This document shows, piece after piece, positions 14,728 to 63,965 of a DNA stretch of 64,000 nucleotides (its first letter is position 1; every line of letters begins with the position of its first letter). The DNA comes from Escherichia phage UB: sequence record MH383160. One strand, written 5' to 3'. The notes below the pieces were generated by a model, which had not been told where the DNA came from, did not search any database, and worked only from the letters and a program-made list of their open reading frames with translations. The position numbers were made by a program, and so were the translations under genes.

Positions 14728-14972
14728 TATAATAAACCTCTCACATAAAACATTGATGAAAATAGATAATCATCAGTACTTGTGTTTAGATGTTTAGAAA
14801 AGCTATATTTTTTATTTTTATTTTCGTATAAAGACAATCTATAGAACATTTCTATATTTTCTAAGTATTCTTTTTGTAATAACATCTGTGTTTTTACATT
14901 CATTATAATATTCCTTAAAAGAAAAAGGGACCAACATATGATCCCTTTTGTATTAGAAATTTCCTTCTGCAA
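14727..14972 (-). CDS. hypothetical small protein (start probably at an internal Met)
   Basis: 81 aa track ORF; its 5' part overlaps pseT 3' end and a weak hairpin, so the real start is likely downstream. Confidence 0.3.
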   Translation of the reverse strand: MQKEISNTKGIICWSLFLLRNIIMNVKTQMLLQKEYLENIEMFYRLSLYENKNKKYSFSKHLNTSTDDYLFSSMFYVRGLL

Positions 14973-19377: not shown

Positions 19378-19384
19378 TTTAGTT

Positions 19385-19687
19385 TTATCCTCTTAATTTA
19401 ATAGTACTGGCTGGATATTCTACAAAAGTATTATCTGGTAATCCTATACAGTAATAAGGTAAATACCCCATCTTTATATTAATACCAATTAAAATTCCTG
19501 TTTTATATGAAGTATTAATTCCATAGTAATCGTCTATATCAACAGCAAGTCCATATAATGATATGTTACAATCCTTGATGTATCGGTCAAACATTTTATA
19601 CATTGATGGATATAAAGTTCCATTGGATTGTCTCACCAAATCAGCCAACATTTTGATAGTACTGTTAATTAAATCTATACTGAACAT
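19385..19687 (-). CDS. hypothetical small protein
   Basis: 100 aa ORF. Confidence 0.45.
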   Translation of the reverse strand: MFSIDLINSTIKMLADLVRQSNGTLYPSMYKMFDRYIKDCNISLYGLAVDIDDYYGINTSYKTGILIGINIKMGYLPYYCIGLPDNTFVEYPASTIKLRG

Positions 19688-21799: not shown

Positions 21800-21992
21800 G
21801 AACACGCTCACAATTAAGGCAATAAATGCACTCAATGTCAGGTCGCCATGATTTATCAAAATCTTTGTGCTGTTCTTCGGTGTATTCTGCATCATCATTA
21901 ATAGGGAAGAAATCACCAGCACCAGTCGCCCAGTCTGAATCTAAACGGAAACGAGCTAATTGAGTACTGTTACAATATGGACATTTATTCAA
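21792..21992 (-). CDS. small zinc-ribbon protein
   Basis: 66 aa with CPYC near N-terminus and CIYCLNC near C-terminus. Confidence 0.45.
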   Translation of the reverse strand: MNKCPYCNSTQLARFRLDSDWATGAGDFFPINDDAEYTEEQHKDFDKSWRPDIECIYCLNCERVHD

Positions 21993-22269
21993 AATTTATT
22001 CCTTCTAACTGATATACGTTTAATGAAAATGACCCACTATTATTATCGCATCTGAAACACAGTGTTAAAGAACCATTAAAACTAACTACATCCGTACAGA
22101 TACATTTTTCACCATTGGATATGATAGATTTTCCTATATATAAATCTCTTACTATAGTACGGTAATGTTGCCATAAAAAATAATACACACTTTCATAGTA
22201 CTCATCTTTTACATATGATAAGTATAAGAATTTATAAAATACTTGTATTTCCTTTAAGTTGTTTTTCAT
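21985..22269 (-). CDS. tandem paralogue family C member
   Basis: 94 aa; N-terminal LKEIQVFYKFLYLSY resembles neighbours. Confidence 0.45.
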   Translation of the reverse strand: MKNNLKEIQVFYKFLYLSYVKDEYYESVYYFLWQHYRTIVRDLYIGKSIISNGEKCICTDVVSFNGSLTLCFRCDNNSGSFSLNVYQLEGINFE

Positions 22270-22543
22270 TCTTCAATTCCAGTAAATTTACACCAATCCA
22301 ATCAACATCACTATCAGTACTTAATTCCAATCGTAGCTTACCGCTATGACTAACAATATCGCGGAATTTGTATATTTTATTATCACGAACTATACACAAA
22401 TCATGGTAATAATCATGTAATTCATCCAAAAACTTTATCCATACCGAACGATAGATTTCACTGTAGAGATATTCTCCAGCATCAACCGTAGCGTATTGGA
22501 TATACAAAAATTTGTATGTGAATTGTATATCATTTAATAACAT
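22232..22543 (-). CDS. tandem paralogue family C member
   Basis: 103 aa; MLLNDIQFTYKFLYIQY N-terminus. Confidence 0.5.
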   Translation of the reverse strand: MLLNDIQFTYKFLYIQYATVDAGEYLYSEIYRSVWIKFLDELHDYYHDLCIVRDNKIYKFRDIVSHSGKLRLELSTDSDVDWIGVNLLELKNEKQLKGNTSIL

Positions 22544-22553
22544 ATGTAACCTC

Positions 22554-22865
22554 TTATAAATTCACCAACTTCACAACTTTAATCTCGATAAATCCCCTAT
22601 CGGTTATTTCCTGAAATTGAACATGGATTATACCATTATATGATTGCACACCATAGAAATCGAATTTATCATTTCCATCGATAAAAGTACTGTAATTCTT
22701 TTTTATATATTCACCTACTGAATCTAAGTACTCAATATATAAATCAATAAATGGTTGTTCTTTGTATCGGTTATGTGAACCTATGTTGTTACTAACAAGG
22801 TATACATCATACAAATCATATAGGATCTTATAAGTGAATTGTATATCATTTAAATTTAATCCCAA
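22554..22865 (-). CDS. tandem paralogue family C member
   Basis: 103 aa; LNLNDIQFTYKILYDLYD N-terminus. Confidence 0.5.
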   Translation of the reverse strand: MGLNLNDIQFTYKILYDLYDVYLVSNNIGSHNRYKEQPFIDLYIEYLDSVGEYIKKNYSTFIDGNDKFDFYGVQSYNGIIHVQFQEITDRGFIEIKVVKLVNL

Positions 22866-23122
22866 GGGAATATCTCCAACGGAATACTGGTAAATCCAAA
22901 ATCAGTGTAGTACTGAACCTCAACTTTACCATCACGTCTAATGATTATATCAGAAAATTCTGCATGGTCATCACCAATAATAACAGTACTGAATTTTTTT
23001 TTAATCTTACCACGAATCGTATGAATCATTTCAGTGCCTGTGTCTTCTAGACTAGGGCTATCATTGTCGTGTGCTAAATCTCGAATAATCTTGTATGTTA
23101 GTAGGAAATCTTTATAATTCAT
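22856..23122 (-). CDS. tandem paralogue family C member
   Basis: 88 aa; MNYKDFLLTYKIIRDLAHD N-terminus. Confidence 0.5.
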   Translation of the reverse strand: MNYKDFLLTYKIIRDLAHDNDSPSLEDTGTEMIHTIRGKIKKKFSTVIIGDDHAEFSDIIIRRDGKVEVQYYTDFGFTSIPLEIFPWD

Positions 23123-23394
23123 ATGTCCACCAAATCTATACTATATCTTTCATTAGTATTACTATCTATAAATGATAGTACTAATTTACCACCAAAACTA
23201 TTAACTTGTTCTATCTTCTGTTTTTTACCACGAATGATTATCTCACTATTAACAAAATATTCACGTATCATTATTAAGTGATTAATCCAGATAGTATGAG
23301 TGAATGTGTTTTCTCGTATTGTATTGAGATATCTTCCATTGTGATGTAAATCAAACAAAACACTGTATGTATATTGTAGAACTTTATAATTCAT
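23119..23394 (-). CDS. tandem paralogue family C member
   Basis: 91 aa; MNYKVLQYTYSVLFDLHH N-terminus. Confidence 0.5.
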   Translation of the reverse strand: MNYKVLQYTYSVLFDLHHNGRYLNTIRENTFTHTIWINHLIMIREYFVNSEIIIRGKKQKIEQVNSFGGKLVLSFIDSNTNERYSIDLVDI

Positions 23395-24611: not shown

Positions 24612-25145
24612 TTATTTCCTCATGTATTTTATAACGTCTTCAAATAATTGTATTTTTAAGTCCTCGTCATTTCCAGGTAAAAACTCACGAAAACTATCAA
24701 AATCTTCATTTTTTGCGAAGTTACGCATTTGTGTTGAGCTATATTGACTTGATTGGCGGTCAATACCTGCTTGAATTGCTTTTATATTACAAAAATTATA
24801 CAACTTCCCATTGTAACTGTCAAGTGTTTTCTGAAAAGAATCAATACGGTCTGAACCACATATAAAAAATACATCTAAATATTTTCCATCTAATTCACGC
24901 ATTATATCAAAAAGATTATCTTCAGTATAAATGTTTTCTTGAACCGAAGGATAGAAACCCTCAGTGTAATACATCTTTAATTCAGGAGGAAGCGGGTTTT
25001 TTATATTATCAGTACTGGTGCTTAGATATATTTTCAAATCTGCATTGTACTGTTCTTGTAATGTTTTGGCCTTTTCAAAAACTAAACCATGACCATTGTG
25101 GACTGGGTTACATCTCATAAATGATAATATACATGTTTCTTTCAT
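24612..25145 (-). CDS. HxGH-motif nucleotidyltransferase (NMN/NaMN adenylyltransferase-like)
   Basis: N-terminal SFMRCNPVHNGH fits the (H/T)xGH signature of the nucleotidyltransferase alpha/beta phosphodiesterase superfamily; SSTQMR near C-terminus resembles the ISSTxxR motif. Confidence 0.55.
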   Translation of the reverse strand: MKETCILSFMRCNPVHNGHGLVFEKAKTLQEQYNADLKIYLSTSTDNIKNPLPPELKMYYTEGFYPSVQENIYTEDNLFDIMRELDGKYLDVFFICGSDRIDSFQKTLDSYNGKLYNFCNIKAIQAGIDRQSSQYSSTQMRNFAKNEDFDSFREFLPGNDEDLKIQLFEDVIKYMRK

Positions 25146-41594: not shown

Positions 41595-41653
41595 TGTGAT
41601 ATAACCCTTTACAATTAATATAAAGAGATTATATCACAAAGAATCGGAGGGTG

Positions 41654-42238
41654 TCAAGATGGGTTGCGAAGTTCTACCATTTCTTTCCAAACTAATTGGT
41701 AATCTTCTAAGTCCAGATAGAAGTCTTCATTCCAGTGCTCATGAAAGTACTTATACATGAATAGAACTCCTAAATCGTATGCAGGAAACAATAATGATAG
41801 TTGAAAGTAGTATTCCTGATTTAAAACTATATCAATGAACTCTAATGTACGTATGCCACCTTTCGATGAACGTATCTCAATGTGTGAGGTATCCTTTATA
41901 CTGTAACACATGAAACCGCCTCTGAATTCTGGATCATATTCACATTCGAACTGCTCACTGTTGTTATAGAAATCTCTCCCACTTTCTTTATCTTTCGGTC
42001 TACGTACTGATACATGAATATTGTTATCACGGTACATTGAACGATTTAGTATTTTCAAACATTTGAACTTATTTTCTTTAATGAACTTGATAATATCAAT
42101 TATATCTTGTGCAGTACTGATAGCTGATTCGAATGTATCCAACTTAAGATGATTATATTGTGTTCCATTGTTCATTTTTTCATCTAACATATAAACCTCA
42201 TAATTCATACATTTTTGATTTGAACTGCATATGACCAC
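41654..42238 (-). CDS. family A protein
   Basis: 194 aa; QEYYFQLSLLF. Confidence 0.55.
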   Translation of the reverse strand: MVICSSNQKCMNYEVYMLDEKMNNGTQYNHLKLDTFESAISTAQDIIDIIKFIKENKFKCLKILNRSMYRDNNIHVSVRRPKDKESGRDFYNNSEQFECEYDPEFRGGFMCYSIKDTSHIEIRSSKGGIRTLEFIDIVLNQEYYFQLSLLFPAYDLGVLFMYKYFHEHWNEDFYLDLEDYQLVWKEMVELRNPS

Positions 42239-42533
42239 CTATTTCACATGGATAACAATTCATAATTTTGTTCAATAAAATCTGGTATTTTTTAATAACT
42301 TCTATATCAATTTTTATATTACTATTAAAAACTAATGATTCTTGAAATAATTCACCCTCGTCAAGTGAAGTAAAATCATTTATCTTCAACGGTATATTGT
42401 TGCATCGCAAGGAGAATGTATTTTCATCACGAATTAAAGTATAGAAATCATTATGTTTTTTATTATAATCAAATTTCACAAGTAGTAGTTTAATATGAGT
42501 AGCGTACATTACTTTCACTAATTCAGTCTTCAT
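42198..42533 (-). CDS. family A protein
   Basis: 111 aa; EGELFQESLVF. Confidence 0.55.
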   Translation of the reverse strand: MKTELVKVMYATHIKLLLVKFDYNKKHNDFYTLIRDENTFSLRCNNIPLKINDFTSLDEGELFQESLVFNSNIKIDIEVIKKYQILLNKIMNCYPCEIGGHMQFKSKMYEL

Positions 42534-42885
42534 AACGGAATAAAATTCTCCTGTACTGCTCCGGTCCAGTACTCAATCTCTTCACTGGATAATTATCAAA
42601 GATTCTTTTCATTTCTTTCTGGATTAAACATAAGAAATCAAAGTTACAATCGTACTTATTATCCCATACTAAACTTTCTTGGAATAACTCATCCTCTTGC
42701 ATTAGTGTAGTGTCAATTACATCTTCACGAACATAGCTATATACTTCATAGCTCTTGAAGCCATCTTCTGATAATTCTAATTCATATGCCGCCATATCAA
42801 ACATATCATCATGGTTTGTCTTCAATGATATTAAACAAGTAACTAATTTTTTAGTTGTATAGTATGTAATACTTAATGTGTTCAT
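42523..42885 (-). CDS. family A protein
   Basis: 120 aa; EDELFQESLVW. Confidence 0.55.
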   Translation of the reverse strand: MNTLSITYYTTKKLVTCLISLKTNHDDMFDMAAYELELSEDGFKSYEVYSYVREDVIDTTLMQEDELFQESLVWDNKYDCNFDFLCLIQKEMKRIFDNYPVKRLSTGPEQYRRILFRYED

Positions 42886-42890
42886 TTGTT

Positions 42891-43493
42891 TTATACCTCA
42901 GTATAAAGCTTACAATAGCTTTCATCAAAATCACAAACACTTCTCAAGTACTGACACAGGTCAGTAAAAATATTTACATTTGCTATATATACATTATCAA
43001 ATTCTACTCGTTGAAAGAATGTATGCATAGAATTTGTAATATATCTCATTGCAGATTCACGTTCCATCGTTAAATCATTTGTGAACATTGCATCTTCATC
43101 AGTACTGACTAATTCAATATCAAATGATTGCATATATGGAATACTCTTTCCTAGGGCATAACTATCACCATATGATGCTTCTACTGCACCTTTAGAATAC
43201 ACCAATTGATATAAGTCCGAAATAGGGTTATAAAACGTGCGGCAAATTGAGGAACATAATTTATTATTCATCCAATAGAAAACCCTATTTGAATTACCGT
43301 CAAATGCTATACGCAATCCATCACCATCTAGAGTAATAATCCCATCCAGCATAAAAGAGAACTGAACTAATGCTTTTTCTAAGTCCATTCTTTTGTGATA
43401 AATGATTTCTTGCATATAGATAATATCATTTACTAATTTCTTAAAAAACAAATGCACATCTGCACTACAACATTTATTTGCATTTATTGGCAT
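42891..43493 (-). CDS. hypothetical protein (array, degenerate motif)
   Basis: 200 aa; DEDAMFTNDL. Confidence 0.5.
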   Translation of the reverse strand: MPINANKCCSADVHLFFKKLVNDIIYMQEIIYHKRMDLEKALVQFSFMLDGIITLDGDGLRIAFDGNSNRVFYWMNNKLCSSICRTFYNPISDLYQLVYSKGAVEASYGDSYALGKSIPYMQSFDIELVSTDEDAMFTNDLTMERESAMRYITNSMHTFFQRVEFDNVYIANVNIFTDLCQYLRSVCDFDESYCKLYTEV

Positions 43494-44044
43494 AATAGTT
43501 CCTTATACATATTATGTACTTTACAAATCTCATTATAGTATTTCATATCAATATCATTTGTATTAAAAACGGAAACAGACAATACCGCTAAATCATCAAT
43601 GAAGTAATTATTATCGGCGTACTCTTTTAACTTATTGAACATATAGATGCATTTTATACTTAATTCATCATGCAACACACTGTTCTGAAAAATATTCTCT
43701 TCAGTATTAGGAGATAAGTAATCTTCAATTATATACGATAAACTACTATCGCAATCTTTATAGATTGAAATTGATGGATGTAATGTGTCATACATTACAC
43801 TAAACAGATCACCGTCATATGTGGATATTAAACTATTATTGGAAACAGTAGGATGATAATATTTCAGTACTGAAAACTTTGAACAATCAGTGCAGTAAAA
43901 ATGATCCATCCCTCGACGACTTTCGTATGAGAATAGTTTACTTGTATATTCAATCCCTTTGGTGCGACGGATTGTTTCATGCATTTCTGCACATTGCATT
44001 AAAATTACCATACGTTCAAACGCAAGATCTAAATCATCGTACAT
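43484..44044 (-). CDS. family A protein
   Basis: 186 aa; EENIFQNSVLH. Confidence 0.55.
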   Translation of the reverse strand: MYDDLDLAFERMVILMQCAEMHETIRRTKGIEYTSKLFSYESRRGMDHFYCTDCSKFSVLKYYHPTVSNNSLISTYDGDLFSVMYDTLHPSISIYKDCDSSLSYIIEDYLSPNTEENIFQNSVLHDELSIKCIYMFNKLKEYADNNYFIDDLAVLSVSVFNTNDIDMKYYNEICKVHNMYKELLCQ

Positions 44045-44225
44045 AACGGATATCCTTCTTCAACGAATTAATATATTCCAAAATAACTTGTTCCTGATAT
44101 TGAGTTCCCAAGTACATCAGGACTTTCAACTCTTTGAATTCAGTACTATATGAGTCTGTTTGCATCATTCTAGTAGAATATATATTGAATAGTTTAGCAA
44201 TGTCATTTTGGTCTATTATTTTCAT
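44034..44225 (-). CDS. family B small protein (outlier copy)
   Basis: 63 aa; LMYLGTQYQEQV. Confidence 0.45.
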   Translation of the reverse strand: MKIIDQNDIAKLFNIYSTRMMQTDSYSTEFKELKVLMYLGTQYQEQVILEYINSLKKDIRYVR

Positions 44226-44421
44226 ATATTCTCTTCTGGATTAGTTCCTGTAAGTGCTGAATATAACCCTTCATTGCAACATCCTGTTTGTTAGAGCCAA
44301 CGAAGAACAAGAGCTTAAAGTCATGGTAATCCATTTTTGGTTTAGTAGTGAACCATATGTCCCACACTGCACTCACAGTTCTCATGTATTCAATTCGATT
44401 AAATGTTTTTGAATACTTCAT
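44203..44421 (-). CDS. family B-like small protein (outlier copy)
   Basis: 72 aa; FFVGSNKQDVAMKGY. Confidence 0.4.
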   Translation of the reverse strand: MKYSKTFNRIEYMRTVSAVWDIWFTTKPKMDYHDFKLLFFVGSNKQDVAMKGYIQHLQELIQKRIYENNRPK

Positions 44422-44935
44422 CGATGTTCATCGCCAATAAGTTAATATACAAATTACTGTTAAATGCTATCTGCAATTCCATATAGAACTGAATGATAGC
44501 ATAGTCAGGGTCAGTACACGATAGTTGAAAGCACTGTTCTTCAAATGAATTGTAATTGTACTTAGGGATGTGAATTTCACGCTTCAAATCAGGTTGACCC
44601 CACTTCATCGCGTACACACCAATGTTATTGTTCTTTTTCCTTTTCTTAAATGTTAATTGTTGAATATTTCCTGCGTCATCCAGGAAAATAGTATTATTCG
44701 ACACAGGTGCACCAATAGAAAACAATGATGTATCAATTACGTGTGTCGCACGCACCTCACACTTCTGGAATGCCCCAGTACCCTGTAATACATAATGAAA
44801 ATTGTACTTCTCATTAACAACAGTACTAGGATCGATTAAACCAGTACTGCATTTTTTGAGTACTGGTACAATGGTGCGAATCTTTTTTGATAAATCTTGT
44901 AATGCATCAAAGTCATTGATGTTAACTTTCATCAC
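44399..44935 (-). CDS. family A protein
   Basis: 178 aa; EEQCFQLSCT. Confidence 0.55.
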   Translation of the reverse strand: MMKVNINDFDALQDLSKKIRTIVPVLKKCSTGLIDPSTVVNEKYNFHYVLQGTGAFQKCEVRATHVIDTSLFSIGAPVSNNTIFLDDAGNIQQLTFKKRKKNNNIGVYAMKWGQPDLKREIHIPKYNYNSFEEQCFQLSCTDPDYAIIQFYMELQIAFNSNLYINLLAMNIDEVFKNI

Positions 44936-45381
44936 TCGAATGTAGCCTCTTCAGTAGTAACAAAATTGGTTAGTGTATCCAGTTCAGCAGTGTCAAGATA
45001 AAATACATCTAGTACAGATTTCTGATATATTACACTGAATGTGCATAGATTGTCAAGTGTTCCTTGTTCATAAACAGTACTACCCTGGAAGTACCCTTCT
45101 TCAGTACTCAGGGATAAAATATCTGAAATTTTAAAAGATTCTTCAGTTGCATGTCTTTCTATATTAACTATATTGCCGTTTCGGTTCAATGAAATATAAT
45201 CGTATGCTAACTCAATTAGACTATAATTATCCGCATTAGTGTCAAATAAAGCGACAATTTTTCGTCTCAATCTCTCATCGTGATCATGGTTTTCATCAGC
45301 TAAGTATTCAGGATTTTCTTTGAAGAATTTAACGACGCGTAGAATATCATTTGCTTTCTTGATTGCACTTTCGTAACTCAT
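44932..45381 (-). CDS. family A protein
   Basis: 149 aa; EEGYFQGSTVY. Confidence 0.55.
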   Translation of the reverse strand: MSYESAIKKANDILRVVKFFKENPEYLADENHDHDERLRRKIVALFDTNADNYSLIELAYDYISLNRNGNIVNIERHATEESFKISDILSLSTEEGYFQGSTVYEQGTLDNLCTFSVIYQKSVLDVFYLDTAELDTLTNFVTTEEATFE

Positions 45382-45686
45382 AATAATTCAACCACTCCAT
45401 CTCTAAAGTACATATAACTACCACCATTGGATACTGTGAATTCTATTGTCCCCAATAATATATTATATTTTTTTATTTCACATGTAGTACTTGTAGTGTA
45501 AGGCTCACCATCTCCTAAGTACATTGACATATGACATAGAACTTTTCTACCAGCATATTTCTCTTCAAACGATTGTTCAAAACTATGCATAATTTGATTT
45601 AAAGCTGAAATGTAATTAATAAAGTCAGGTATTTCTGTCAATGAATTATAAACCGTACAAAGTGAATCAAATTCATTTTTAGTCAT
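45378..45686 (-). CDS. hypothetical small protein (K-Y-x-G family)
   Basis: 102 aa; EEKYAGRKVLC. Confidence 0.45.
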   Translation of the reverse strand: MTKNEFDSLCTVYNSLTEIPDFINYISALNQIMHSFEQSFEEKYAGRKVLCHMSMYLGDGEPYTTSTTCEIKKYNILLGTIEFTVSNGGSYMYFRDGVVELL

Positions 45687-46000
45687 TATATTTCTATCTC
45701 AATGTAATCCTGTGTGATTAAATAATCCCAATGATACTTCACCTGCTTTTGTAATTCAATTAACGTAAAGAAGTTGATCGATTTATCCCATACGAGCGAT
45801 TCCTGGAAAATAAATGATTCATGTTCATCGTAATAATCACACTCTAAAAAATCAGGTATATATTCACTATCGTGAATGTATTCAACAAACGAACTAGCTT
45901 GGCATTTCTTTACTACTAGTAATAATGAATTATCATGATCAAACAGATACAATAAACTAATTTCACCAGGGACGTACTGAACACTGAATAAGTTTTTCAT
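45686..46000 (-). CDS. family A protein
   Basis: 104 aa; ESFIFQESLVW. Confidence 0.55.
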   Translation of the reverse strand: MKNLFSVQYVPGEISLLYLFDHDNSLLLVVKKCQASSFVEYIHDSEYIPDFLECDYYDEHESFIFQESLVWDKSINFFTLIELQKQVKYHWDYLITQDYIEIEI

Positions 46001-46449
46001 TCTATACCTTCTGGATCTTTACGAAGTTCTTCGAAATCCAAATAAAATCGAGGACAGTTAACACTCTTTAAGTACCACATAATAACTAATGCTTCAAGTA
46101 CTTCATCATCGTAAACAGTACTGTTTTGGAAGTAATACTCTTCACTATCCCACGGACCTTCCAGTACTTCATAATTCAAAATTAATGGTTTTTTGCGATT
46201 AATAAAACGAATGCTACCATTTTCAACATAACTAATAAATTCTGCATCTCTATTGTATTCAGAAAACGATATAGGACTATTGGAATTCAACCCAAGAATA
46301 ACCCTTACACCAACGGAGTTATTATACATTTCATCCTTGTAGTAGTTGCCGTTCTCGGCTTTGTACACTTCTTTGAACTTTCCTGCCTTTATATCGTCAA
46401 AGTATCCATGTAGTTCTTTTGCTTTTTCAAGAGCACTTTGTAATGACAT
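45997..46449 (-). CDS. family A protein, MSLQSAL subfamily
   Basis: 150 aa; N-terminus MSLQSALEKAKELH; EEYYFQNSTVYDDEVLEALVIMWYLKSV. Confidence 0.6.
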   Translation of the reverse strand: MSLQSALEKAKELHGYFDDIKAGKFKEVYKAENGNYYKDEMYNNSVGVRVILGLNSNSPISFSEYNRDAEFISYVENGSIRFINRKKPLILNYEVLEGPWDSEEYYFQNSTVYDDEVLEALVIMWYLKSVNCPRFYLDFEELRKDPEGIE

Positions 46450-46915
46450 TACCTTCTCCTACAGTATTCTCTACATATTCATAATCAAAATAGAAACTAC
46501 TGGAGTCAATACTTTTGAAATACCACATAATTACAATAACATCTAATTCTTCTTCATTGTACAACGTACTATTCTGGAAGTAATATTCTTCACTATCCCA
46601 CGGTCCTTCCAGTACTGAATAAGGAATGATAGTGTCATCAGCATCACTATCTGTGTTGTAGATGGTAATATCTTCATTACGGCAATAACTAATGTACTGA
46701 TTGTACATATGATATTCACAGTTATCACTGTCACCAGTATCAGTGTGCAGTACTAATGTTTCTGCACATATCTCGGACTCGTCATAATCGTCACGGTCTT
46801 TTACAAAAAATTCAGTATCAGATGTTTTATACACCCCAGGTACTGAACCTTCCTGTACCATAATCATGTACTCATGAATCTTCTTTGCTTCTTTCAATGC
46901 ACTTTGTAACGACAT
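46427..46915 (-). CDS. family A protein, MSLQSAL subfamily
   Basis: 162 aa; MSLQSALKEAKKIH; EEYYFQNSTLYNEEELDVIVIMWYFKSI. Confidence 0.6.
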   Translation of the reverse strand: MSLQSALKEAKKIHEYMIMVQEGSVPGVYKTSDTEFFVKDRDDYDESEICAETLVLHTDTGDSDNCEYHMYNQYISYCRNEDITIYNTDSDADDTIIPYSVLEGPWDSEEYYFQNSTLYNEEELDVIVIMWYFKSIDSSSFYFDYEYVENTVGEGNVITKCS

Positions 46916-56171: not shown

Positions 56172-56524
56172 CCGTAATGAATAGGACTATTCTTTTCTCC
56201 TTTAGGAATAAAATATAAAGATGTACTGGGGTTATAACTGAATAAATCGTTGTTACCAAATGTAAAATGCGATAACTCAATTTTCCTTGTACCTGTACTT
56301 GGACGAAGAGCATTCTTAACACCGAAGACTGTACCTTGATATTTCTCGGAAAATTCAAACAATACATCTGTAATTAAATCACGAAACTCCGCATGTATGG
56401 TTTCAAAAAAATCTATATTACACGATGTTTTAATATCCTTGAACTCATTATAAAAAGCATGTCTTGTATTCAAAAGAAATATTACTTTTTTAAGATCCTG
56501 AACTATTTCTGGATTCATATTCAT
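56114..56524 (-). CDS. hypothetical protein
   Basis: 136 aa ORF. Confidence 0.45.
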   Translation of the reverse strand: MNMNPEIVQDLKKVIFLLNTRHAFYNEFKDIKTSCNIDFFETIHAEFRDLITDVLFEFSEKYQGTVFGVKNALRPSTGTRKIELSHFTFGNNDLFSYNPSTSLYFIPKGEKNSPIHYGWIISYTINGTEYPIKWHD

Positions 56525-56756
56525 TTATCTCATTCTGTAACTTAAGCATCAAAATTTGCATATTAATTTTTTGTAAAAGGTGCTTGATAAATTTCTGTGC
56601 CATTTCTTCTTGTTCTTTTGTACCAAGATAAAATAACAGATTAAATTCTGATAATCGCAAAGAAAAATCTTCATCACCACCCTTTAAACAAAAATCCCTG
56701 TACTTTGTAGCGTACAAATATTGGTTTACCTTTTTATAATACCCTGTGTTTTGCAT
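56490..56756 (-). CDS. family B small protein (outlier copy)
   Basis: 88 aa; FYLGTKEQEEMAQKFIKHL. Confidence 0.45.
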   Translation of the reverse strand: MQNTGYYKKVNQYLYATKYRDFCLKGGDEDFSLRLSEFNLLFYLGTKEQEEMAQKFIKHLLQKINMQILMLKLQNEINEYESRNSSGS

Positions 56757-56944
56757 ACTATCTCCGTTCGCAACGAATTTATATAATAATGAACAAATTG
56801 TTCTTGTGAACGTGTTCCAAGAAAAATAAACATATCAAACTCTGTTGTTTTTAAATTCAATGCATCTTTTGTAAAATTCCTGTTGAATTCCCTGTACTTT
56901 TGGGTCTTCCATTCTTGATTAATTGTCTTGTATATCGATTTCAA
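56726..56944 (-). CDS. family B small protein (outlier copy)
   Basis: 72 aa; IFLGTRSQEQFVHYYINSL. Confidence 0.45.
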   Translation of the reverse strand: MKSIYKTINQEWKTQKYREFNRNFTKDALNLKTTEFDMFIFLGTRSQEQFVHYYINSLRTEIVCKTQGIIKR

Positions 56945-57239
56945 TGATTCTCCCTGACATACCTTGTATTAGCTTATCATACATATCGAGCATCACTTTT
57001 TGAATATTAATTAGTACTGGCATCGTGCAAATATCAATGTCGTATACTAAGCTGTACTGGAATAATTCATCTTCCTGCATTTGTACTAAATTAGGTAAAA
57101 GATAATTGTCTGCCTCTTCATCCTGGTACTTGAAATGCATAACACCATCCTTTTTGTACAAAAGAATGTCAATATCACCTAACTCTTCTGCATAACCAAA
57201 AATACATATACTCGATGTTTTTGCTATATTAAATTTCAT
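56919..57239 (-). CDS. family A protein
   Basis: 106 aa; EDELFQYSLVY. Confidence 0.55.
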   Translation of the reverse strand: MKFNIAKTSSICIFGYAEELGDIDILLYKKDGVMHFKYQDEEADNYLLPNLVQMQEDELFQYSLVYDIDICTMPVLINIQKVMLDMYDKLIQGMSGRIIEIDIQDN

Positions 57240-58045
57240 GATTTATATTGTTCCTTAAAAACACCACAATGATAATTTTTATTGTATTGTGTAATACTAT
57301 AATCACACGGCATTGTCCCGCACGAAGCTCTGTGTTTTAAACGTTCCAATACCTTATCGTAATCTTTACTGAAAATGCCATTTTCATTGGGCGTAGCAAT
57401 CATTAATGCTTGCTCATATAAATCTTTTGTTCTTGTTGAACCATGCGAATGTTTGTTAAAATAAAATACATATTCAACTTCCCAATTACTTCTTAAATAG
57501 GATATTCCGTAATTGATAATCATATAATAATGTAAATCCTTGTAATAATTGAATGTCTTATCTGTATTAATCAAAATATATGAAGAACTATCATTGTCCT
57601 TAATAACAAATAAACGACCAATCTTATTTTCTTTATCTTTAACTAATTGTCTAATTTCATCACCTTCTTCAAATTTACGATGCACTTCAATTACAGATTT
57701 AGCAATCCCAGTCTGTACTAAAGATTCATATGTTGCGTACATAAAATCACTTACATGACCTAAACCAACATCTTCTTTTCTTGGTGTCTCTGTTGTATTG
57801 ACAAACATATTCAATAACTTTTGAATTGAAAAATCAGTACTGCAATCTTTATTAATTTTAATTTTTTCTCGAATCTCTTCCTTTAATGCATTAATATATT
57901 GCTCTTGTGCTGCTTCCTGATAATTTGTACCAAGATATAAACTCAAGGCAACTGAACCTTTGTAAGATGCTGATTTCTTTAAATCACCAGAACTAAATTT
58001 TTTCATAATCAAATTGGTTGCTTCAGATTCTGTTAAAAATTTCAT
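57236..58045 (-). CDS. family B module fused to a larger C-terminal domain
   Basis: 269 aa; N-terminal about 75 aa carries LSLYLGTNYQEAAQEQYINALKEEI; followed by about 190 aa unrelated region. Confidence 0.55.
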   Translation of the reverse strand: MKFLTESEATNLIMKKFSSGDLKKSASYKGSVALSLYLGTNYQEAAQEQYINALKEEIREKIKINKDCSTDFSIQKLLNMFVNTTETPRKEDVGLGHVSDFMYATYESLVQTGIAKSVIEVHRKFEEGDEIRQLVKDKENKIGRLFVIKDNDSSSYILINTDKTFNYYKDLHYYMIINYGISYLRSNWEVEYVFYFNKHSHGSTRTKDLYEQALMIATPNENGIFSKDYDKVLERLKHRASCGTMPCDYSITQYNKNYHCGVFKEQYKS

Positions 58046-58153
58046 ATCATTGTACCTTATCTTAAAATTGAATAGGTAAACATGTTAACACTATTCAAAT
58101 GGAGTGTCAACATTGATCTTCATTCTGTGAATATTAAATTTCATATTATTCTC

Positions 58154-58486
58154 TTATATATTGAATTCACATACGTGTTGAACAAAATTCTTTGGAAGAT
58201 GACAATGTGCAATCATCTGCTGTTGCACTTTCTTCATATCTTCTAATGTAAAACCTAAAGAATCATCGTGTACTAACATGTACTGAAACTCTTCTTCTTC
58301 AGAGATAGAACATAAATTCGGTACTGAAATTGTTTTTGTTTTTCTTGCACCTAATTTCCAATGAAAAGAATTATTGCATTTTCTGTACTCAAATATCTTC
58401 AACCCAGCACCTCTATTAAAATCAGCTACTACAATGTAACATGAATTCTTACGTACAATACAATTAAATTTACGCATTATCTCCAC
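58154..58486 (-). CDS. family A protein
   Basis: 110 aa; EEEEFQYMLVH. Confidence 0.55.
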   Translation of the reverse strand: MEIMRKFNCIVRKNSCYIVVADFNRGAGLKIFEYRKCNNSFHWKLGARKTKTISVPNLCSISEEEEFQYMLVHDDSLGFTLEDMKKVQQQMIAHCHLPKNFVQHVCEFNI

Positions 58487-58722
58487 CTCTCTCCGTCATC
58501 GCAAGAGTACTGGTACGTTGTCGTTAGGGTAGGGACCATGTTGGTAATGGGCATATTATTAACAATAACCGTAACAGGCATAAGAATCGTCTCTACTCTA
58601 CTCTGTCCTGTCCTTGTGCAATTCATCTTTTGCATTTCATCTGAATCCATGAAATACAATACAAATGGTGCAATCCCAAGAACAATACACAAGACGATAA
58701 GGAAATTTAAAAAATTTAACAT
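58477..58722 (-). CDS. small membrane protein
   Basis: 81 aa with N-terminal hydrophobic helix (FLNFLIVLCIVLGIAPFVLYF). Confidence 0.4.
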   Translation of the reverse strand: MLNFLNFLIVLCIVLGIAPFVLYFMDSDEMQKMNCTRTGQSRVETILMPVTVIVNNMPITNMVPTLTTTYQYSCDDGERWR

Positions 58723-58781
58723 AATTTTTACCCTATGATTAACGTTAGTGTACTATATCAGTAATGAAAAGTACTGTCAAG

Positions 58782-59177
58782 CTAGTACTGCACTGTTCTA
58801 ATGAAAGTACCTTTACTCATGGATTTAAGCTTATGAACCTCTTCCTGCATACCCTTAATTAACCCTAAAGGTATAGGTAAATCATGTACTAAGCTGTACT
58901 GAAAGTATTCTTCTTCAGATAAAGTACTAACATCTGGGACTCCAATTTTAGTTAGATAATCTTGATGTGTTGACCAATAAATTATATCTTCAGTACTATT
59001 GTACTCCCCATATACTGAACAATATTGATGAATATCTTTCCTGTACCCTTGAGCAATAAAGAACTTATCTACTGCATTACCAGCATTAATAGAATTCACT
59101 TCTATTGTCACAGTACTTGAGCTTGTATAACTCTTAATATTATCAGTACTCAATAATGTGTTCTTCATAATCACCAT
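58782..59177 (-). CDS. family A protein
   Basis: 131 aa; LSEEEYFQYSLVH. Confidence 0.55.
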   Translation of the reverse strand: MVIMKNTLLSTDNIKSYTSSSTVTIEVNSINAGNAVDKFFIAQGYRKDIHQYCSVYGEYNSTEDIIYWSTHQDYLTKIGVPDVSTLSEEEYFQYSLVHDLPIPLGLIKGMQEEVHKLKSMSKGTFIRTVQY

Positions 59178-59487
59178 TAGGCTCCTGTTTAGATTCTTTC
59201 ATTAGTACTATCATCTTATGTACTAATGGCATAGGAAACTCTAAATCCCATACTAATGATTCCTGAAAGTATTCTTCTTCAGATAAAGTACTTAAATCTT
59301 TAATATCAACGTGCTTGTATATTTTATTTTCGTAATTAACAAATGATATATATAAATCACTAACATAAGAATCATAGGTAATTGTGAATGGCTTACCCTT
59401 GTAATCCATTACATCTCTACATAGACTACTTTTGATATATGTATGTTCAAATGATTTATATACCTTGAGTTGTATATTAGTTTTCAT
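59143..59487 (-). CDS. family A protein
   Basis: 114 aa; LSEEEYFQESLVW. Confidence 0.55.
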   Translation of the reverse strand: MKTNIQLKVYKSFEHTYIKSSLCRDVMDYKGKPFTITYDSYVSDLYISFVNYENKIYKHVDIKDLSTLSEEEYFQESLVWDLEFPMPLVHKMIVLMKESKQEPNGDYEEHIIEY

Positions 59488-59752
59488 ATTTCTCTTTATT
59501 AGCTTGTTTTGTTTTATGGTGAATTAAATCTATTAATGTAATCAAGTACAACGTCAAATAGTACTCTTGTTGATCTGTACCTAATGATACAAAGAACTTG
59601 TGCTCATAGATTAAAACCTGTTTCTCTTCAAATGGACATTTAATCCTCTGTATAGGCTTAAGTAAATGATAGTACTTATTAAATCTATGATACATTTCTA
59701 GTTCTGTCAGTACTTTCATATTAAACACGTACTCCATTAGCAGTAGCATCAC
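59477..59752 (-). CDS. family B small protein
   Basis: 91 aa; VSLGTDQQEYYL. Confidence 0.5.
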   Translation of the reverse strand: MMLLLMEYVFNMKVLTELEMYHRFNKYYHLLKPIQRIKCPFEEKQVLIYEHKFFVSLGTDQQEYYLTLYLITLIDLIHHKTKQANKEKYEN

Positions 59753-59942
59753 GTAAAGCTGTCAAATACTTCTGTACTGCTTGCTCTTGTTTATTTGTAC
59801 CTAAAAGTATATACATCCATAATTCACTGTAATGTACATCTTCTGTATAAGGGTTGTTGTAACTTTTTGATAATATAGCATCAAATTCAGATGCATGAAC
59901 CCTTGTGAACTTAAGAATATCTTGTTGTGTTATGATTCTCAT
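59721..59942 (-). CDS. family B small protein
   Basis: 73 aa; ILLGTNKQEQAV. Confidence 0.5.
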   Translation of the reverse strand: MRIITQQDILKFTRVHASEFDAILSKSYNNPYTEDVHYSELWMYILLGTNKQEQAVQKYLTALRDATANGVRV

Positions 59943-60154
59943 ATCTTTTCCTGTACAATCTGTATAAGAATACCTATGTGTGAATTAACAGTTCTCTCTT
60001 GATGCTGTGTTCCTAAGAGTGTCAGTACTATCATATCTGAACGCAAAAGATTTTTTTCAAGTTCACTTATATCAGTTCTTGAATCAAGTGCCATATATTT
60101 GTGATTATTCTTCCTGAATAGTGCCAAGTACTCTTGATTTGATATTTCCTTCAT
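59939..60154 (-). CDS. family B small protein
   Basis: 71 aa; LTLLGTQHQERTV. Confidence 0.5.
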   Translation of the reverse strand: MKEISNQEYLALFRKNNHKYMALDSRTDISELEKNLLRSDMIVLTLLGTQHQERTVNSHIGILIQIVQEKI

Positions 60155-60372
60155 AGTTTATTCCTGATGCCATTTAAAAGTGCTCTAATATGCTCATTGA
60201 CAAATCGCTCTTGGGAATCTGTTCCTAGAGTGAGTAGCAATCTTAAATCTGAACTTTTGATGTGATATTCTAAATCATTATTTGATTCTTGCATCAGTTT
60301 CTTAAAGGATGAGAAGTTTGCAGCCATTAGTTCAATGTATTCTGCTGTTCCTAGTGGTTTGTGTGTTGACAT
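60151..60372 (-). CDS. family B small protein
   Basis: 73 aa; LLTLGTDSQERFV. Confidence 0.5.
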   Translation of the reverse strand: MSTHKPLGTAEYIELMAANFSSFKKLMQESNNDLEYHIKSSDLRLLLTLGTDSQERFVNEHIRALLNGIRNKL

Positions 60373-60584
60373 TTGAGTTGTATTACCCTTTTGAGTGTAT
60401 TAATGTAATTATACACATTGGCTTCTTGATAGTTTGTTCCTAGAGTAGCTTGAACATAGATTTCATTTAACTTAATAATTTTATCAGTATCTGGTAGTTT
60501 TGATGTGTTAATGGCAAATAACTTCAAAAACAGTCCATTTAAGATTGTTAGGTATTCTTCGTCGGTAATGATTCGCATTTGCAT
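60351..60584 (-). CDS. family B small protein
   Basis: 77 aa; ATLGTNYQEANV. Confidence 0.5.
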   Translation of the reverse strand: MQMRIITDEEYLTILNGLFLKLFAINTSKLPDTDKIIKLNEIYVQATLGTNYQEANVYNYINTLKRVIQLKCQHTNH

Positions 60585-60796
60585 TGGATAAACCTTTTTA
60601 GTTCTTTGATGTAATCATTAATATTGCATTCTTGGTAGTTAGTTCCCAGTGTAGCTTGAACATAGATTTCACTTACTAGAATACTTATTTCATCATCTGG
60701 TAATTTCATGCTTTTTGTTATAAACAACTTTAGAATTAAACTACTTAATAGTTGGTTGTATTCTGTGGGTGAAATGATTTTCATTTTCATTTGCAT
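60548..60796 (-). CDS. family B small protein
   Basis: 82 aa; ATLGTNYQECNI. Confidence 0.5.
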   Translation of the reverse strand: MQMKMKIISPTEYNQLLSSLILKLFITKSMKLPDDEISILVSEIYVQATLGTNYQECNINDYIKELKRFIQCKCESLPTKNT

Positions 60797-61002
60797 TTTC
60801 TCAGTACTGATTCTTTAAGTTCATTGATGTAGTCCTCAACGAATTGTTCTTGTAGGTTTGTTCCGAGATATAACAGTACTCTTAAATCTGCTCTAAGTAC
60901 TTCTTTGTCATCTTCATCTATATCAGACAGTGTTATGTTTAAGAATTTACTTGAATTCTCTACAAGTAATATTACTTCTTCACCTTCTCTTAAAATTTTC
61001 AT
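60787..61002 (-). CDS. family B small protein
   Basis: 71 aa; LYLGTNLQEQFV. Confidence 0.5.
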   Translation of the reverse strand: MKILREGEEVILLVENSSKFLNITLSDIDEDDKEVLRADLRVLLYLGTNLQEQFVEDYINELKESVLRKCK

Positions 61003-61208
61003 AATCTTAGTGCTTTCCTCGACAGTAGGTACAGGTAACGTTCAGTGCATTGTTCTTGATAGTTTGTTCCTAATAAATGAACTAAATGTTGTTCAGCTAT
61101 AGAAAGCTGCTTGTCTTCATAACAAGCGTATCGTTGTTTCCTATGGTATTCTTTATTGATAACATCAAGGATGATAACACCGTATTCGTCATCTGTCAAG
61201 TGTTTCAT
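60999..61208 (-). CDS. family B small protein
   Basis: 69 aa; HLLGTNYQEQCT. Confidence 0.5.
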   Translation of the reverse strand: MKHLTDDEYGVIILDVINKEYHRKQRYACYEDKQLSIAEQHLVHLLGTNYQEQCTERYLYLLSRKALRL

Positions 61209-61446
61209 GCTTTTTTCTTTTTCTTATATGTTTAGTTAAAAGGTATATTAGTTTTCTGATGTATTCTTCCTGATAGTTTGTTCCTAAGAGTGCAAGAAGT
61301 TTTGCTTCAACTAAAGCTAATTGACGTTCTTCGAATGTGTGTTCCAGTATGTACTTGGGGTTTGATTTTTTAGCGTAAGCACTATTAGTCTTCATTACAA
61401 TCTTATGATATTCATTAGCTGTTAGGATTTTTAAATACTTGATCAT
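61189..61446 (-). CDS. family B small protein
   Basis: 85 aa; ALLGTNYQEEYI. Confidence 0.5.
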   Translation of the reverse strand: MIKYLKILTANEYHKIVMKTNSAYAKKSNPKYILEHTFEERQLALVEAKLLALLGTNYQEEYIRKLIYLLTKHIRKRKKHETLDR

Positions 61447-61666
61447 GTATCTTTTCCTTTATAGAGAATTTAAGATATCGAAGCATACTTTCAATGTAAT
61501 ACTCTTGTCTGTCAGTGCCAAGAAAGTACATGAGTTGAATGTATAAAACTTCTGCACTCCTTTCCGCTGGAGACTTGTTTGTGTCGTTTGGAAGTTGATT
61601 TGTATGTTTTCTTGATTTAATTAGTCGTTCTTTTAACTCATCGTCTGTTAAGTATTTCATTTTCAT
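61415..61666 (-). CDS. family B small protein (PAERSAEVL subtype)
   Basis: 83 aa; PAERSAEVLYIQLMYFLGTDRQEYYI. Confidence 0.5.
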   Translation of the reverse strand: MKMKYLTDDELKERLIKSRKHTNQLPNDTNKSPAERSAEVLYIQLMYFLGTDRQEYYIESMLRYLKFSIKEKIHDQVFKNPNS

Positions 61667-61892
61667 TTACTTTTTCCTTAATAGTAATTTTAAGATATCT
61701 AATCATACGTGCAACATATTCCTCTTGTCTATCAGTTCCCAGAAGATATGGTAGTGATTGGAATAATACTTCTGCACTCCTTTCTGCTGGGGTTTGGTTT
61801 AGGTCAATTGGACGTTTATTGGTATATCTCTTGGCACGAACTAATCTCTCGACGTATTCATTATAGGTTAAGTATATCATTTCATTTTGCAT
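61638..61892 (-). CDS. family B small protein (PAERSAEVL subtype)
   Basis: 84 aa; PAERSAEVLFQSLPYLLGTDRQEEYV. Confidence 0.5.
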   Translation of the reverse strand: MQNEMIYLTYNEYVERLVRAKRYTNKRPIDLNQTPAERSAEVLFQSLPYLLGTDRQEEYVARMIRYLKITIKEKVNENEILNRR

Positions 61893-62118
61893 TTACTTTT
61901 TCCTTAATAGTAATTTTGAGATATTTAATTATACGTTCAATGTGATACTCTTGCCTATCAGTTCCAAGAAGGTATGGTAATCTTTGGAATAAAACTTCCG
62001 CACTCCTTTCTGCTGGGGTTTGATTTGTGTTGTGAGGAAGTTTATTTGTAAGTCTTTTGGATTTATCTAGTCTTTCTGTTAACTCATCATGTGTTAAGTA
62101 TATCATTTCATTTTGCAT
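61882..62118 (-). CDS. family B small protein (PAERSAEVL subtype)
   Basis: 78 aa; PAERSAEVLFQRLPYLLGTDRQEYHI; N-terminus MQNEMIYLT identical to neighbour. Confidence 0.5.
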   Translation of the reverse strand: MQNEMIYLTHDELTERLDKSKRLTNKLPHNTNQTPAERSAEVLFQRLPYLLGTDRQEYHIERIIKYLKITIKEKVNAK

Positions 62119-62345
62119 TTAATGTTCCTTACGTAAATTGTCTGGATTAAACAATCAATCCAAGTTTGAATATATTGGTTTTGATACTGTGTGCCTAAGA
62201 GACTCTGCATTTTAAACTCTGCTTCAAGTTCATATCTCTTTTCTATAGAAAAGCTCAAATGACCATATTCTTTATCGTATCTTCTCAGTGCTTCCCCAAT
62301 TCTATTAAATCTTTCTGCTAATCTGATGTTATTCACAATATTCAT
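62103..62345 (-). CDS. family B small protein
   Basis: 80 aa; SLLGTQYQNQYI. Confidence 0.5.
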   Translation of the reverse strand: MNIVNNIRLAERFNRIGEALRRYDKEYGHLSFSIEKRYELEAEFKMQSLLGTQYQNQYIQTWIDCLIQTIYVRNIKCKMK

Positions 62346-62632
62346 CGATCAGTATACCTCAGTGGTTGGGTCATTTGATAAAAGTACAGCTTACCTTTGA
62401 TTTCCAGTAGTAACTCCGCGATTAAGCGATTTACTTCTGTATCTTGATAGTTTGTTCCTAAGAATACACCCATCTTTAACTCACGCATCATAATCATTTT
62501 CTTACTGTGTTGGATTTCTGGGTTGTGATAAATTGTATTACGTTTGTGCGTAATTTTTGTCATACGCTCGGTATATTCATCTTTACTTAAATTGATCATT
62601 TGCATGTTAATTACCCTTACATTTATTTTCAA
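62342..62632 (-). CDS. family B small protein
   Basis: 96 aa; VFLGTNYQDTEV. Confidence 0.5.
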   Translation of the reverse strand: MKINVRVINMQMINLSKDEYTERMTKITHKRNTIYHNPEIQHSKKMIMMRELKMGVFLGTNYQDTEVNRLIAELLLEIKGKLYFYQMTQPLRYTDR

Positions 62633-62837
62633 TACTATTCATGAGTTCTATAAGATAGTTTTCTACCTTACCTTCCTGATAGTTAGTCCCTAGGAAGTTG
62701 CACAACACGGCTTCTATGATTTTGATTTTCCTGATATCAGGCTTCAATCTTTTGTTATTGAATATTTGAATCCTTATATCTCTGGATGCATTTAAACGTT
62801 TTTGATATTCATGGTAAGTTAAATGAATCATTTTCAT
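62607..62837 (-). CDS. family B small protein
   Basis: 76 aa; NFLGTNYQEGKV. Confidence 0.5.
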   Translation of the reverse strand: MKMIHLTYHEYQKRLNASRDIRIQIFNNKRLKPDIRKIKIIEAVLCNFLGTNYQEGKVENYLIELMNSIENKCKGN

Positions 62838-63052
62838 TTACGTTTAACCTCTCGCTGGAGGGCATCAATTAACATCAGTACAGCATTCTCTTGATAGTTT
62901 GTTCCTAAGACTGAAAGCATCTTTATCTCATTTACTAAAATCAACTTCTTTGAGGGTTCAATAATGTGACTATCATAAACGGCCTTACGTGCTGGATAAG
63001 TTTTCGCCAGTATAACATAAAATTCGTCTTTACTTAAATTAATCATTTGCAT
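62834..63052 (-). CDS. family B small protein
   Basis: 72 aa; SVLGTNYQENAV. Confidence 0.5.
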   Translation of the reverse strand: MQMINLSKDEFYVILAKTYPARKAVYDSHIIEPSKKLILVNEIKMLSVLGTNYQENAVLMLIDALQREVKRK

Positions 63053-63261
63053 TTACTTTTAACCTCTTTCTGTAGAGCGTCAATCCATAGATCTACATAC
63101 ATTTGTTGATAGTTTGTGCCTAAGAGTGCACCTACATAGAGTTCAGTTACTAGTGCGTGCTTAAGGTTAGCTTGGATGCTCTTATCGCTTGATATCATTC
63201 TCCTTCTGCTTCCACATGTTTTCAGGAGTCTGATGTATTCAAAGCCTTGTAAATTTCTCAT
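63043..63261 (-). CDS. family B small protein
   Basis: 72 aa; ALLGTNYQQMYV. Confidence 0.5.
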   Translation of the reverse strand: MRNLQGFEYIRLLKTCGSRRRMISSDKSIQANLKHALVTELYVGALLGTNYQQMYVDLWIDALQKEVKSKCK

Positions 63262-63473
63262 ATTTTGGATACCACCTTGTTACGTAAGGAACTTAATAAT
63301 ACGTCAGTGTAGATGTTTTGATAGTTTGTCCCTACGAATACACCCAACTTCATTTCAGCTATTATAACACATTTGTCCTCTTGTGCAATAGATTTGTTTA
63401 ACACAATACTATACACTTTTGATTTGATAGTTTGTAACCTCCAATGATACTGATACTCATTAAGGATTATCAT
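63258..63473 (-). CDS. family B small protein
   Basis: 71 aa; VFVGTNYQNIYT. Confidence 0.5.
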   Translation of the reverse strand: MIILNEYQYHWRLQTIKSKVYSIVLNKSIAQEDKCVIIAEMKLGVFVGTNYQNIYTDVLLSSLRNKVVSKI

Positions 63474-63708
63474 TCTCTTTCCTCCAGATTTCGGTTCTCA
63501 TGTGTTGGCAGTGTGCTTCGATGAACATATCTATTGATTTGGCAATTGCGTTTTTATCAGTGCCTGTCATCAGTACAAGCATCTCGGCCTCACAGTGAAG
63601 TAAACGCATGATATCATAGGGTAATATTTCAGATACAGTGTCATAGTGTTTCTGTGCCAGTGTCTGCAATAGTTTACAATACATTTTGTGATTTAGTCTT
63701 TGTCGCAT
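63460..63708 (-). CDS. family B-like small protein (divergent)
   Basis: 82 aa; LVLMTGTDKNAIAKSI. Confidence 0.4.
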   Translation of the reverse strand: MRQRLNHKMYCKLLQTLAQKHYDTVSEILPYDIMRLLHCEAEMLVLMTGTDKNAIAKSIDMFIEAHCQHMRTEIWRKENDNP

Positions 63709-63965
63709 TGTTTATTCCATTCTTTTTTGGCCTTGATGGTTTTATATTGGATTTGGTTTCTTAATGCTGATAAGTATCGTTGAATGAACAGATCTTGATA
63801 GTTTGTTCCAATGAATTTCATAAGATAAAGTTCACCGTTGATAACATCCACTTCAGGTGCACCATATAAGGCATTGTTTTTTCTAAGGGCATGGATTAAA
63901 GAGAATAGGGCAGTTTGATACTCAACTCCTGATAAAGTCTTCATGTTTTGTGAGCAAATAATCAT
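63693..63965 (-). CDS. family B small protein
   Basis: 90 aa; KFIGTNYQDLFIQRYL. Confidence 0.5.
   Translation of the reverse strand: MIICSQNMKTLSGVEYQTALFSLIHALRKNNALYGAPEVDVINGELYLMKFIGTNYQDLFIQRYLSALRNQIQYKTIKAKKEWNKQCDKD

Follow-up and report, generated by a model that had tools for sequence, protein, structure and literature searches.

The closest described counterpart of the genes considered here is in phage 121Q, for which a tandem array of ">30 very similar genes" is mentioned in one sentence and growth of the genome by tandem duplication is proposed (Hua et al. 2017, mBio, PMC5646251). The present report concerns two small open reading frames (ORFs) at 44034-44421, on the minus strand, in a stretch of 64,000 nucleotides from Escherichia phage UB (sequence record MH383160); this whole stretch is called the window below. 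Both ORFs belong to a family of small proteins, family B, whose main array lies at 59477-63965, and both are embedded in an array of genes of a second family, family A. The 121Q array is very probably the same family B array; we make this identification because 121Q is 95-97% identical to the window in this region and because the array together with its outliers sums to about 33 copies. The sentence on 121Q gives no family definition, no fold, no second family and no dispersed copies (PMC5646251).

A similar case is Bacillus phage G, in which about 35 zinc-ribbon genes form a lineage-specific expansion (Iyer et al. 2021, PMC7824862). The likeness is that a jumbo phage has dozens of small paralogous genes in tandem whose role is unknown; the difference is that the protein is a zinc ribbon there, while here it is a predicted three-helix bundle without zinc ligands, and that here two families are interleaved and conserved across genera. 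Among eukaryotic viruses, the multigene families (MGF) 110, 360 and 505 of African swine fever virus and the "genomic accordions" of poxviruses also place paralogous families side by side near a genome terminus, with strain-variable copy number and a presumed role in host antagonism. The layout is similar; however, there is no relationship in sequence or fold, the virus considered here is a bacterial one, and its anti-host role is what we infer. The hyperplastic early regions of T4-type phages and the pre-early terminal-repeat genes of T5 consist of small early genes with host-type promoters, situated near the first-entering DNA and exchanged in a mosaic manner at gene boundaries. Those genes are mostly unrelated singletons, whereas here we have two families of more than 30 copies. 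In the papers on jumbo phages in general and on Sharanji, fEgEco12, CBB, RaK2 and phAPEC6, paralogues are mentioned in general remarks only. In kind, the feature is the expansion of multigene families close to one end of a large viral genome; this example of it is uncharacterised so far.

The two small ORFs were noticed in a sequence-only reading of the window, which described them as family B-like and placed them in the middle of the family A array. Both are present. The first, B1 (44034-44225, minus strand), encodes 63 amino acids (aa) and contains VLMYLGTQYQEQV; the second, B2 (44203-44421, minus strand), encodes 72 aa, contains FFVGSNKQDVAMKGY and is divergent. A hidden Markov model (HMM) of family B, trained solely on the 20 tandem genes at 59477-63965 in order to avoid circularity, matches B1 with E 8.2e-13 and B2 with E 5.3e-8, while the best unrelated ORF of the window has E 0.32, a clear gap below the members. 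The PHROGs database, independently, assigns all dispersed B copies to phrog_4148 (function unknown): B1 is matched with E 1.2e-16 over profile positions 1-70 of 74, and B2 with E 8e-4 over positions 35-72 only. All-against-all BLASTP of 150 window ORFs gives two large clusters, namely A with 25 members (39420-59487) and B with 21 members, including B1. BLASTP alone links B1 to ten array members and gives no link between B2 and the array members. The motif of the family, LGTxxQ(E), is found in B1 (MKII...LGTQYQE) and, with threonine replaced by serine and glutamate by aspartate, in B2 (MKYS...VGSNKQD), and both proteins have the usual length of the family (about 60-90 aa). By HMM and motif we classify B2 as a divergent B member in which GS replaces GT. 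The outliers are thus homologous to the 59.5-64 kb array, as the sequence-only reading had supposed. The possibility that the two ORFs are degenerate A genes is ruled out, since the A HMM gives them E 0.28 or worse.

The description of the surroundings was also right. The 25 A genes extend across 39420-59487, and the pair is flanked by two of them: one directly downstream of B1 (43484-44044, minus strand; A-HMM E 1.7e-22), which overlaps B1 by 11 nucleotides, and one upstream of the pair (44932-45381, minus strand; A-HMM E 7.5e-29), which contains EEGYFQGS. Directly upstream of B2 there is a gene of neither family (44399-44932, minus strand; 177 aa, phrog_18780), whose end is overlapped by the start of B2 over 23 nucleotides. 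Two more B copies had been placed at 56490-56944, and they are found there on the minus strand: 56490-56756 (88 aa, HMM E 2.5e-8), whose closest paralogue is its neighbour, and 56726-56944 (72 aa), which starts with TTG and was added by a six-frame HMM scan (E 1.6e-12). A fifth dispersed B domain, 57854-58045, had been overlooked. It forms the first 64 residues of a protein of 269 aa, encoded on the minus strand at 57236-58045 (HMM E 1.8e-10; phrog_4148 E 1.2e-10) and is followed by an orphan C-terminal region of 205 aa, for which no homologue was found beyond its own orthologue. If this region were an A domain, the fusion would be a Rosetta-stone link between the families; this is ruled out by an hhalign probability of 0.1%. 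The main array itself (59477-63965, minus strand) has 20 tandem genes with mostly overlapping starts and stops. Counting the array, the outliers and the extension of the array in phage PBECO4, there are about 33 B domains per genome.

Selection on the pair was estimated as the ratio of nonsynonymous to synonymous substitution rates (dN/dS, Nei-Gojobori method), using orthologues from phages Turkey3, vB_Ec-M-J and WPEC5 (76-82% DNA identity). The values are 0.14-0.21 for B1 and 0.02-0.22 for B2, similar to 0.12-0.25 for the neighbouring genes; the B2 protein is nearly invariant across the genus, while its synonymous sites change. Both ORFs are intact in every relative examined, and both are annotated in the three phages, except that the second ORF is given a late start in Turkey3. 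Judging from these ratios, both small ORFs are real genes under purifying selection. The selection analysis and the intact frames contradict the suggestion that the embedded copies are decaying, functionless relics of duplication or recombination, tolerated as spare DNA by a jumbo phage with head-full packaging, and we regard it as hardly probable at all, even considering the tandem-duplication growth proposed for 121Q (PMC5646251), the deletion of neighbouring copies in some genomes, and the fact that the annotators of PBECO4 missed or truncated both ORFs. In the PBECO4 record (KC295538.1) the first embedded ORF is cut to 44 aa and the second is omitted (111351-111716), and many genes of the B array are missed as well (126000-132000); the difference is an annotation gap rather than a biological one.

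Concerning the origin of the interspersion, it had been suggested that the two families are shuffled by recombination. As a recent event at 44034-44421 this is not supported. Among the full-length Asteriusvirus matches, which reach down to 76% DNA identity, the pair stands between the same two genes (44399-44932 upstream and the A gene 43484-44044 downstream) in 32 of 32. Within the window, identity between a dispersed B copy and any other copy is no more than about 30-40%. The families are interleaved in another genus as well: in Klebsiella phage KP13-7 (Alcyoneusvirus), the 40 kb that were scanned contain 14 or more B genes and 20 or more A genes, thoroughly mixed, and no long array of B genes alone. 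As the interleaving is found in a different genus too, we conclude from gene order that the interspersion is probably old rather than the result of a recent shuffle, and that the copies at 44.0-44.4 kb would be old residents rather than recent insertions. The HMM gene order of vB_Ec-M-J follows the same plan as the window: 26 B genes, then A A B A A B B, about 20 A, B B, and then A. A more distant relative, from a metagenome and with 36% G+C, shows a B array followed by B-A-B and then by A genes that have a B among them. Reciprocal best hits between the genera (44034 with KP13-7 32085, 56490 with 28616, and 57854 with 18570) point to paralogue lineages that may have existed before the genera split. 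We conclude that A/B interleaving was probably the ancestral layout in RaK2-like jumbo phages, and that the long pure B array would be a later tandem amplification in Asteriusvirus. In the KP13-7 region 18570-40183, two B domains are fused to a common C-terminal extension of about 55 aa (19122-19496 and 22808-23158).

Recombination still acts on the region in other ways, and to this extent the suggestion of shuffling stands. In comparison with divergent relatives, DNA identity over 41900-46500 shifts in gene-sized blocks from about 60% to 99%: it is 90-93% for 42891-43493, about 60% for 43484-44044, 80-99% for the B pair, and 67-98% for 44399-44932. Such blocks indicate exchange of alleles with breakpoints near gene boundaries. 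The A gene 43484-44044 is a strongly divergent allele between relatives (dN 0.36, in the block of about 60% DNA identity); the dN of B1, which it overlaps, is 0.06-0.10, and at the protein level the A gene changes about 4-6 times faster than the B pair. A segment of 1240 bp (57239-58479), comprising the 269-aa B fusion and the A gene 58154-58477, is polymorphic for presence. It is absent from PBECO4, from Salmonella phage SD-1_S14 and, judged by coverage, from most other Asteriusvirus genomes, so that the fusion protein is missing from most relatives; EC.P1 does have the segment; in that genome one B is missing and an additional B stands between A copies. The A genes flanking this segment have AAATTTAAT in common at their 5' ends, which fits unequal exchange between paralogues.

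The copy number of the array varies too. The window has one B copy more than PBECO4 at about 61896-62351 (455 bp against 218 bp between matching blocks), and PBECO4 has about 8 further B copies past the position that matches the window edge. The SD-1_S14 genome (310 kb), compared with 12681-63999 of the window, has dozens of small deletions; among what is lost are the two B genes at 56563-56926 and, at 60214-60773, two copies of the array. Since fragmentary coding sequences are frequent in this genome, the quality of the assembly is uncertain. Adjacent paralogues are sometimes fused, B with B or A with A (e.g., P0001 from a metagenome, 154 aa, and P0100, 242 aa). Thus, tandem paralogues vary in copy number or presence between close relatives, as in "accordion"-type expansion, and this kind of variation is typical of dispensable accessory genes with fast turnover.

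The fold of family B was modelled on B1 with AlphaFold2, using an alignment of 25 window paralogues. The model is a three-helix bundle (helices 6-22, 28-37 and 44-62) with a predicted local distance difference test (pLDDT) score of 94.7, and we predict with high confidence that family B proteins are small three-helix bundles. The conserved elements of the family are an N-terminal M-K-hydrophobic segment, which forms a strand, and the LGTxxQ(E) turn between helices 2 and 3; among the 25 copies the glycine is invariant, and the threonine, glutamine and leucine are at least 90% conserved. Since the model pairs the N-terminal segment with the turn (residue 2 is bridged to residue 41), the two look like the core that defines the fold. 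In our reading, the glycine would be a helix C-cap, and the threonine and glutamine an N-capping box.

Family B is mildly basic (median isoelectric point, pI, 9.1), and most copies have C-terminal tails rich in lysine and arginine. Together with the helix-glycine-turn-helix arrangement, which superficially recalls a helix-turn-helix (HTH), and with the large expansions of putative DNA-binding zinc ribbons in phage G (PMC7824862), this makes it tempting to see the B proteins as small regulators that bind nucleic acids in an HTH-like or histone-like manner and that tune transcription in the early region or coat DNA, with the embedded copies regulating A operons locally. We consider this distinctly unlikely. 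The loop between helices 2 and 3 has six residues with a beta bridge and is longer than the classical HTH turn; several copies are neutral or acidic (e.g., 60787-61002, pI 4.5); and neither Pfam, nor PDB sequences, nor any comparison of fold or sequence supports the proposal. As a candidate, a DNA-binding HTH protein was rejected, the fold not being recognisable by comparison of structure or sequence. Family B has no match among solved structures, and a profile search of PDB sequences gave nothing below E 0.1. An exhaustive HMMER search of 1.84 billion representatives returned only 87 B relatives, all of 52-96 aa except the 269-aa fusion. Ten divergent representatives were traced to Asteriusvirus, phage A4, Klebsiella phages of the Alcyoneusvirus type, or unnamed metagenomes; tblastn with a metagenomic relative (P0206) matched no isolate phage.

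Family A is larger than first noted. Apart from the 25 clear members of its core array (39420-59487, minus strand; 103-188 aa), which have the motif (S/T)EE-x-(Y/F)FQ-x-S with an invariant F-Q, the A HMM picks up about 12 others, remote ones, as far back as about 30 kb. The PHROGs assignments are of the phrog_9317/12674 type. The proteins are strongly acidic (median pI 4.7, net charge down to -26), and their predicted fold is of the alpha/beta class. When the A model was compared with the folds in BFVD, the only matches were uncharacterised proteins from phages 121Q, RaK2, GAP32, Serratia BF and Yersinia fHe-Yen9; there is no match among solved structures, nor anything below E 0.1 in a profile search of PDB sequences. 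Pfam, applied to 10 proteins and to every member of both family alignments, gives only sub-threshold noise (Ty3_capsid, NTP_transf_6). A cleavage site like that of the tobacco etch virus (TEV) protease was considered for EEGYFQGS and rejected, as the motif is modelled inside a helix.

The position of the window is established by its relatives: over the segment 43000-46000 the identity is 98.9% with Escherichia phages JP4 and PBECO4, and 95-97% with 121Q, phAPEC6, G17 and others, and by sequence similarity the window is assigned to Asteriusvirus, i.e., to the PBECO4/121Q-like E. coli jumbo phages with genomes of about 350 kb. Its G+C content is 32%, and nearly all its ORFs are on the minus strand, tightly packed and frequently overlapping. 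In Asteriusvirus genomes, the two families take up about 35 kb directly on the inner side of the terminal repeat. For vB_Ec-M-J the annotation places the end of the direct terminal repeat at 21,525; the first B gene starts about 60 bp further in, and from there on every gene is read in the direction away from the terminus. Sigma70 promoters close to the consensus, agreeing with it at 11 or more of 12 positions, are strongly biased by strand: the window has 18 of them on the coding (minus) strand and one on the plus strand. Two sites are perfect, TTGACA-N17/18-TATAAT: one at about 24795-24823 (minus strand), and one at 41628-41657 (minus strand), which has a spacer of 18 with TG and lies in an intergenic gap of the A array. 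A near-consensus site, TTGACA-17-TATAGT, is found upstream of the second embedded site at 58752-58780 (minus strand), in the gap 58722-58782. In the repeat-side segment of PBECO4 the promoters are 20 against 4 by strand; ten are perfect, and one is just upstream of the first B gene. We read these promoters as probable signals of early transcription by the host RNA polymerase, the timing being drawn from the consensus and from the place in the genome. Scans of the window with Rfam found no RNA family, and a terminator scan found no enrichment.

The terminal-repeat position and the strand-biased sigma70-like promoters suggest early genes of host takeover or anti-defence. Further along the same strand, a block of genes (4862-5557, 6424-7215, 7235-8653, 10787-11545, 14953-15885 and 16709-17851, all minus) encodes ClpP, two metallophosphoesterases, an ATP-dependent DNA ligase, a polynucleotide kinase-phosphatase (PNKP) and a T4-type RNA ligase 1 (Rnl1). 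In T4, Rnl1 and PNKP are a counter-defence pair that repairs tRNA cut by the host anticodon nuclease, and their presence here fits a counter-defence neighbourhood. In the paper on the virion proteome of phAPEC6, none of gp430-gp489 is mentioned by name in the main text, which is weak evidence that these proteins are non-structural. All-against-all BLASTP also revealed a third group of small paralogues, a trio of about 91-103 aa (21985-22269, 22232-22543 and 23119-23394, minus strand).

With moderate confidence, we propose the following explanation. The two embedded ORFs would be functional, anciently dispersed members of family B (phrog_4148), a family of 60-90-aa, mostly mildly basic proteins predicted to be three-helix bundles, within an early region served by the host polymerase in which A and B genes have been mixed since before the genera separated. 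The genes of both families would form packed, often overlapping operons, fed by sigma70-type promoters and read away from the genome end. The conserved core of B may be kept for the fold, leaving the remainder of each copy free to vary. Most likely, both families are diversified small early proteins that bind host, and possibly phage, macromolecules in takeover or counter-defence, and each paralogue may have a target or an allele specificity of its own. The early timing, the binding role and the anti-host purpose are what we infer.

Several points weigh against this explanation. The patch formed by the N-terminus and LGTxxQ could be a shared binding site and not purely structural. The scores of the cross-genus orthology are low, about 35 bits. 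The deletions do no more than suggest dispensability, as the Salmonella phage genomes that carry them look fragmentary. A literature search found no transcript or protein data for any Asteriusvirus, and the early timing is read from promoter consensus and position only.

It had also been suggested that the two families work together, and no evidence for such a partnership was found. In its explicit form, the suggestion is that basic B binds acidic A as inhibitor and effector, chaperone and client, or in a manner similar to toxin and antidote, with the interleaving maintained for the sake of co-expression. The families do occur together, and their genes are intermixed both in two genera and in a relative from a metagenome; their charges are opposite (median pI 4.7 for A against 9.1 for B); overlapping adjacent ORFs permit translational coupling; each family has one nearly invariant short motif, which could serve as a common interface; and the cross-genus co-location and shared operon layout favour co-expression. 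However, the copies are not one-to-one: 20-29 B genes stand in a row without A, and about 18 A genes without B. Among 229 retrieved relatives there is no A-B fusion, only A-A and B-B. The rates of B1 and of the A gene overlapping it differ, as given above. Finally, A-like folds also occur in the other RaK2-like phages GAP32, Serratia BF and Yersinia fHe-Yen9, whereas the B homologues that were traced belong only to Asteriusvirus, to phage A4 and to Klebsiella phages of the Alcyoneusvirus type, other genera having not been scanned directly for B. Direct partnership is therefore unlikely in our opinion. A more elaborate form of it is quite improbable: an ancestral two-family system in which the N-terminus/LGTxxQ patch of B docks on the EE-x-(Y/F)FQ-x-S helix of A, giving a combinatorial early repertoire of about 70 genes that neutralises host defences.

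Returning to the explanation by diversified early proteins, the embedded copies are real and evolutionarily informative, and on present evidence they are mechanistically unsurprising. About 70 genes, or about 10% of a 350-kb genome, are devoted to two uncharacterised families that have neither a Pfam model nor a likeness among solved structures, and both have been conserved, in interleaved form, in no fewer than two phage genera, which infect E. coli and Klebsiella. The chief use of the finding is as evolutionary evidence: the dispersed B genes would mark an older mixed layout, and the long B array a later, derived amplification. If these proteins are early anti-host effectors, they would constitute a large untapped source of host-takeover and anti-defence proteins in phages already proposed for therapy.
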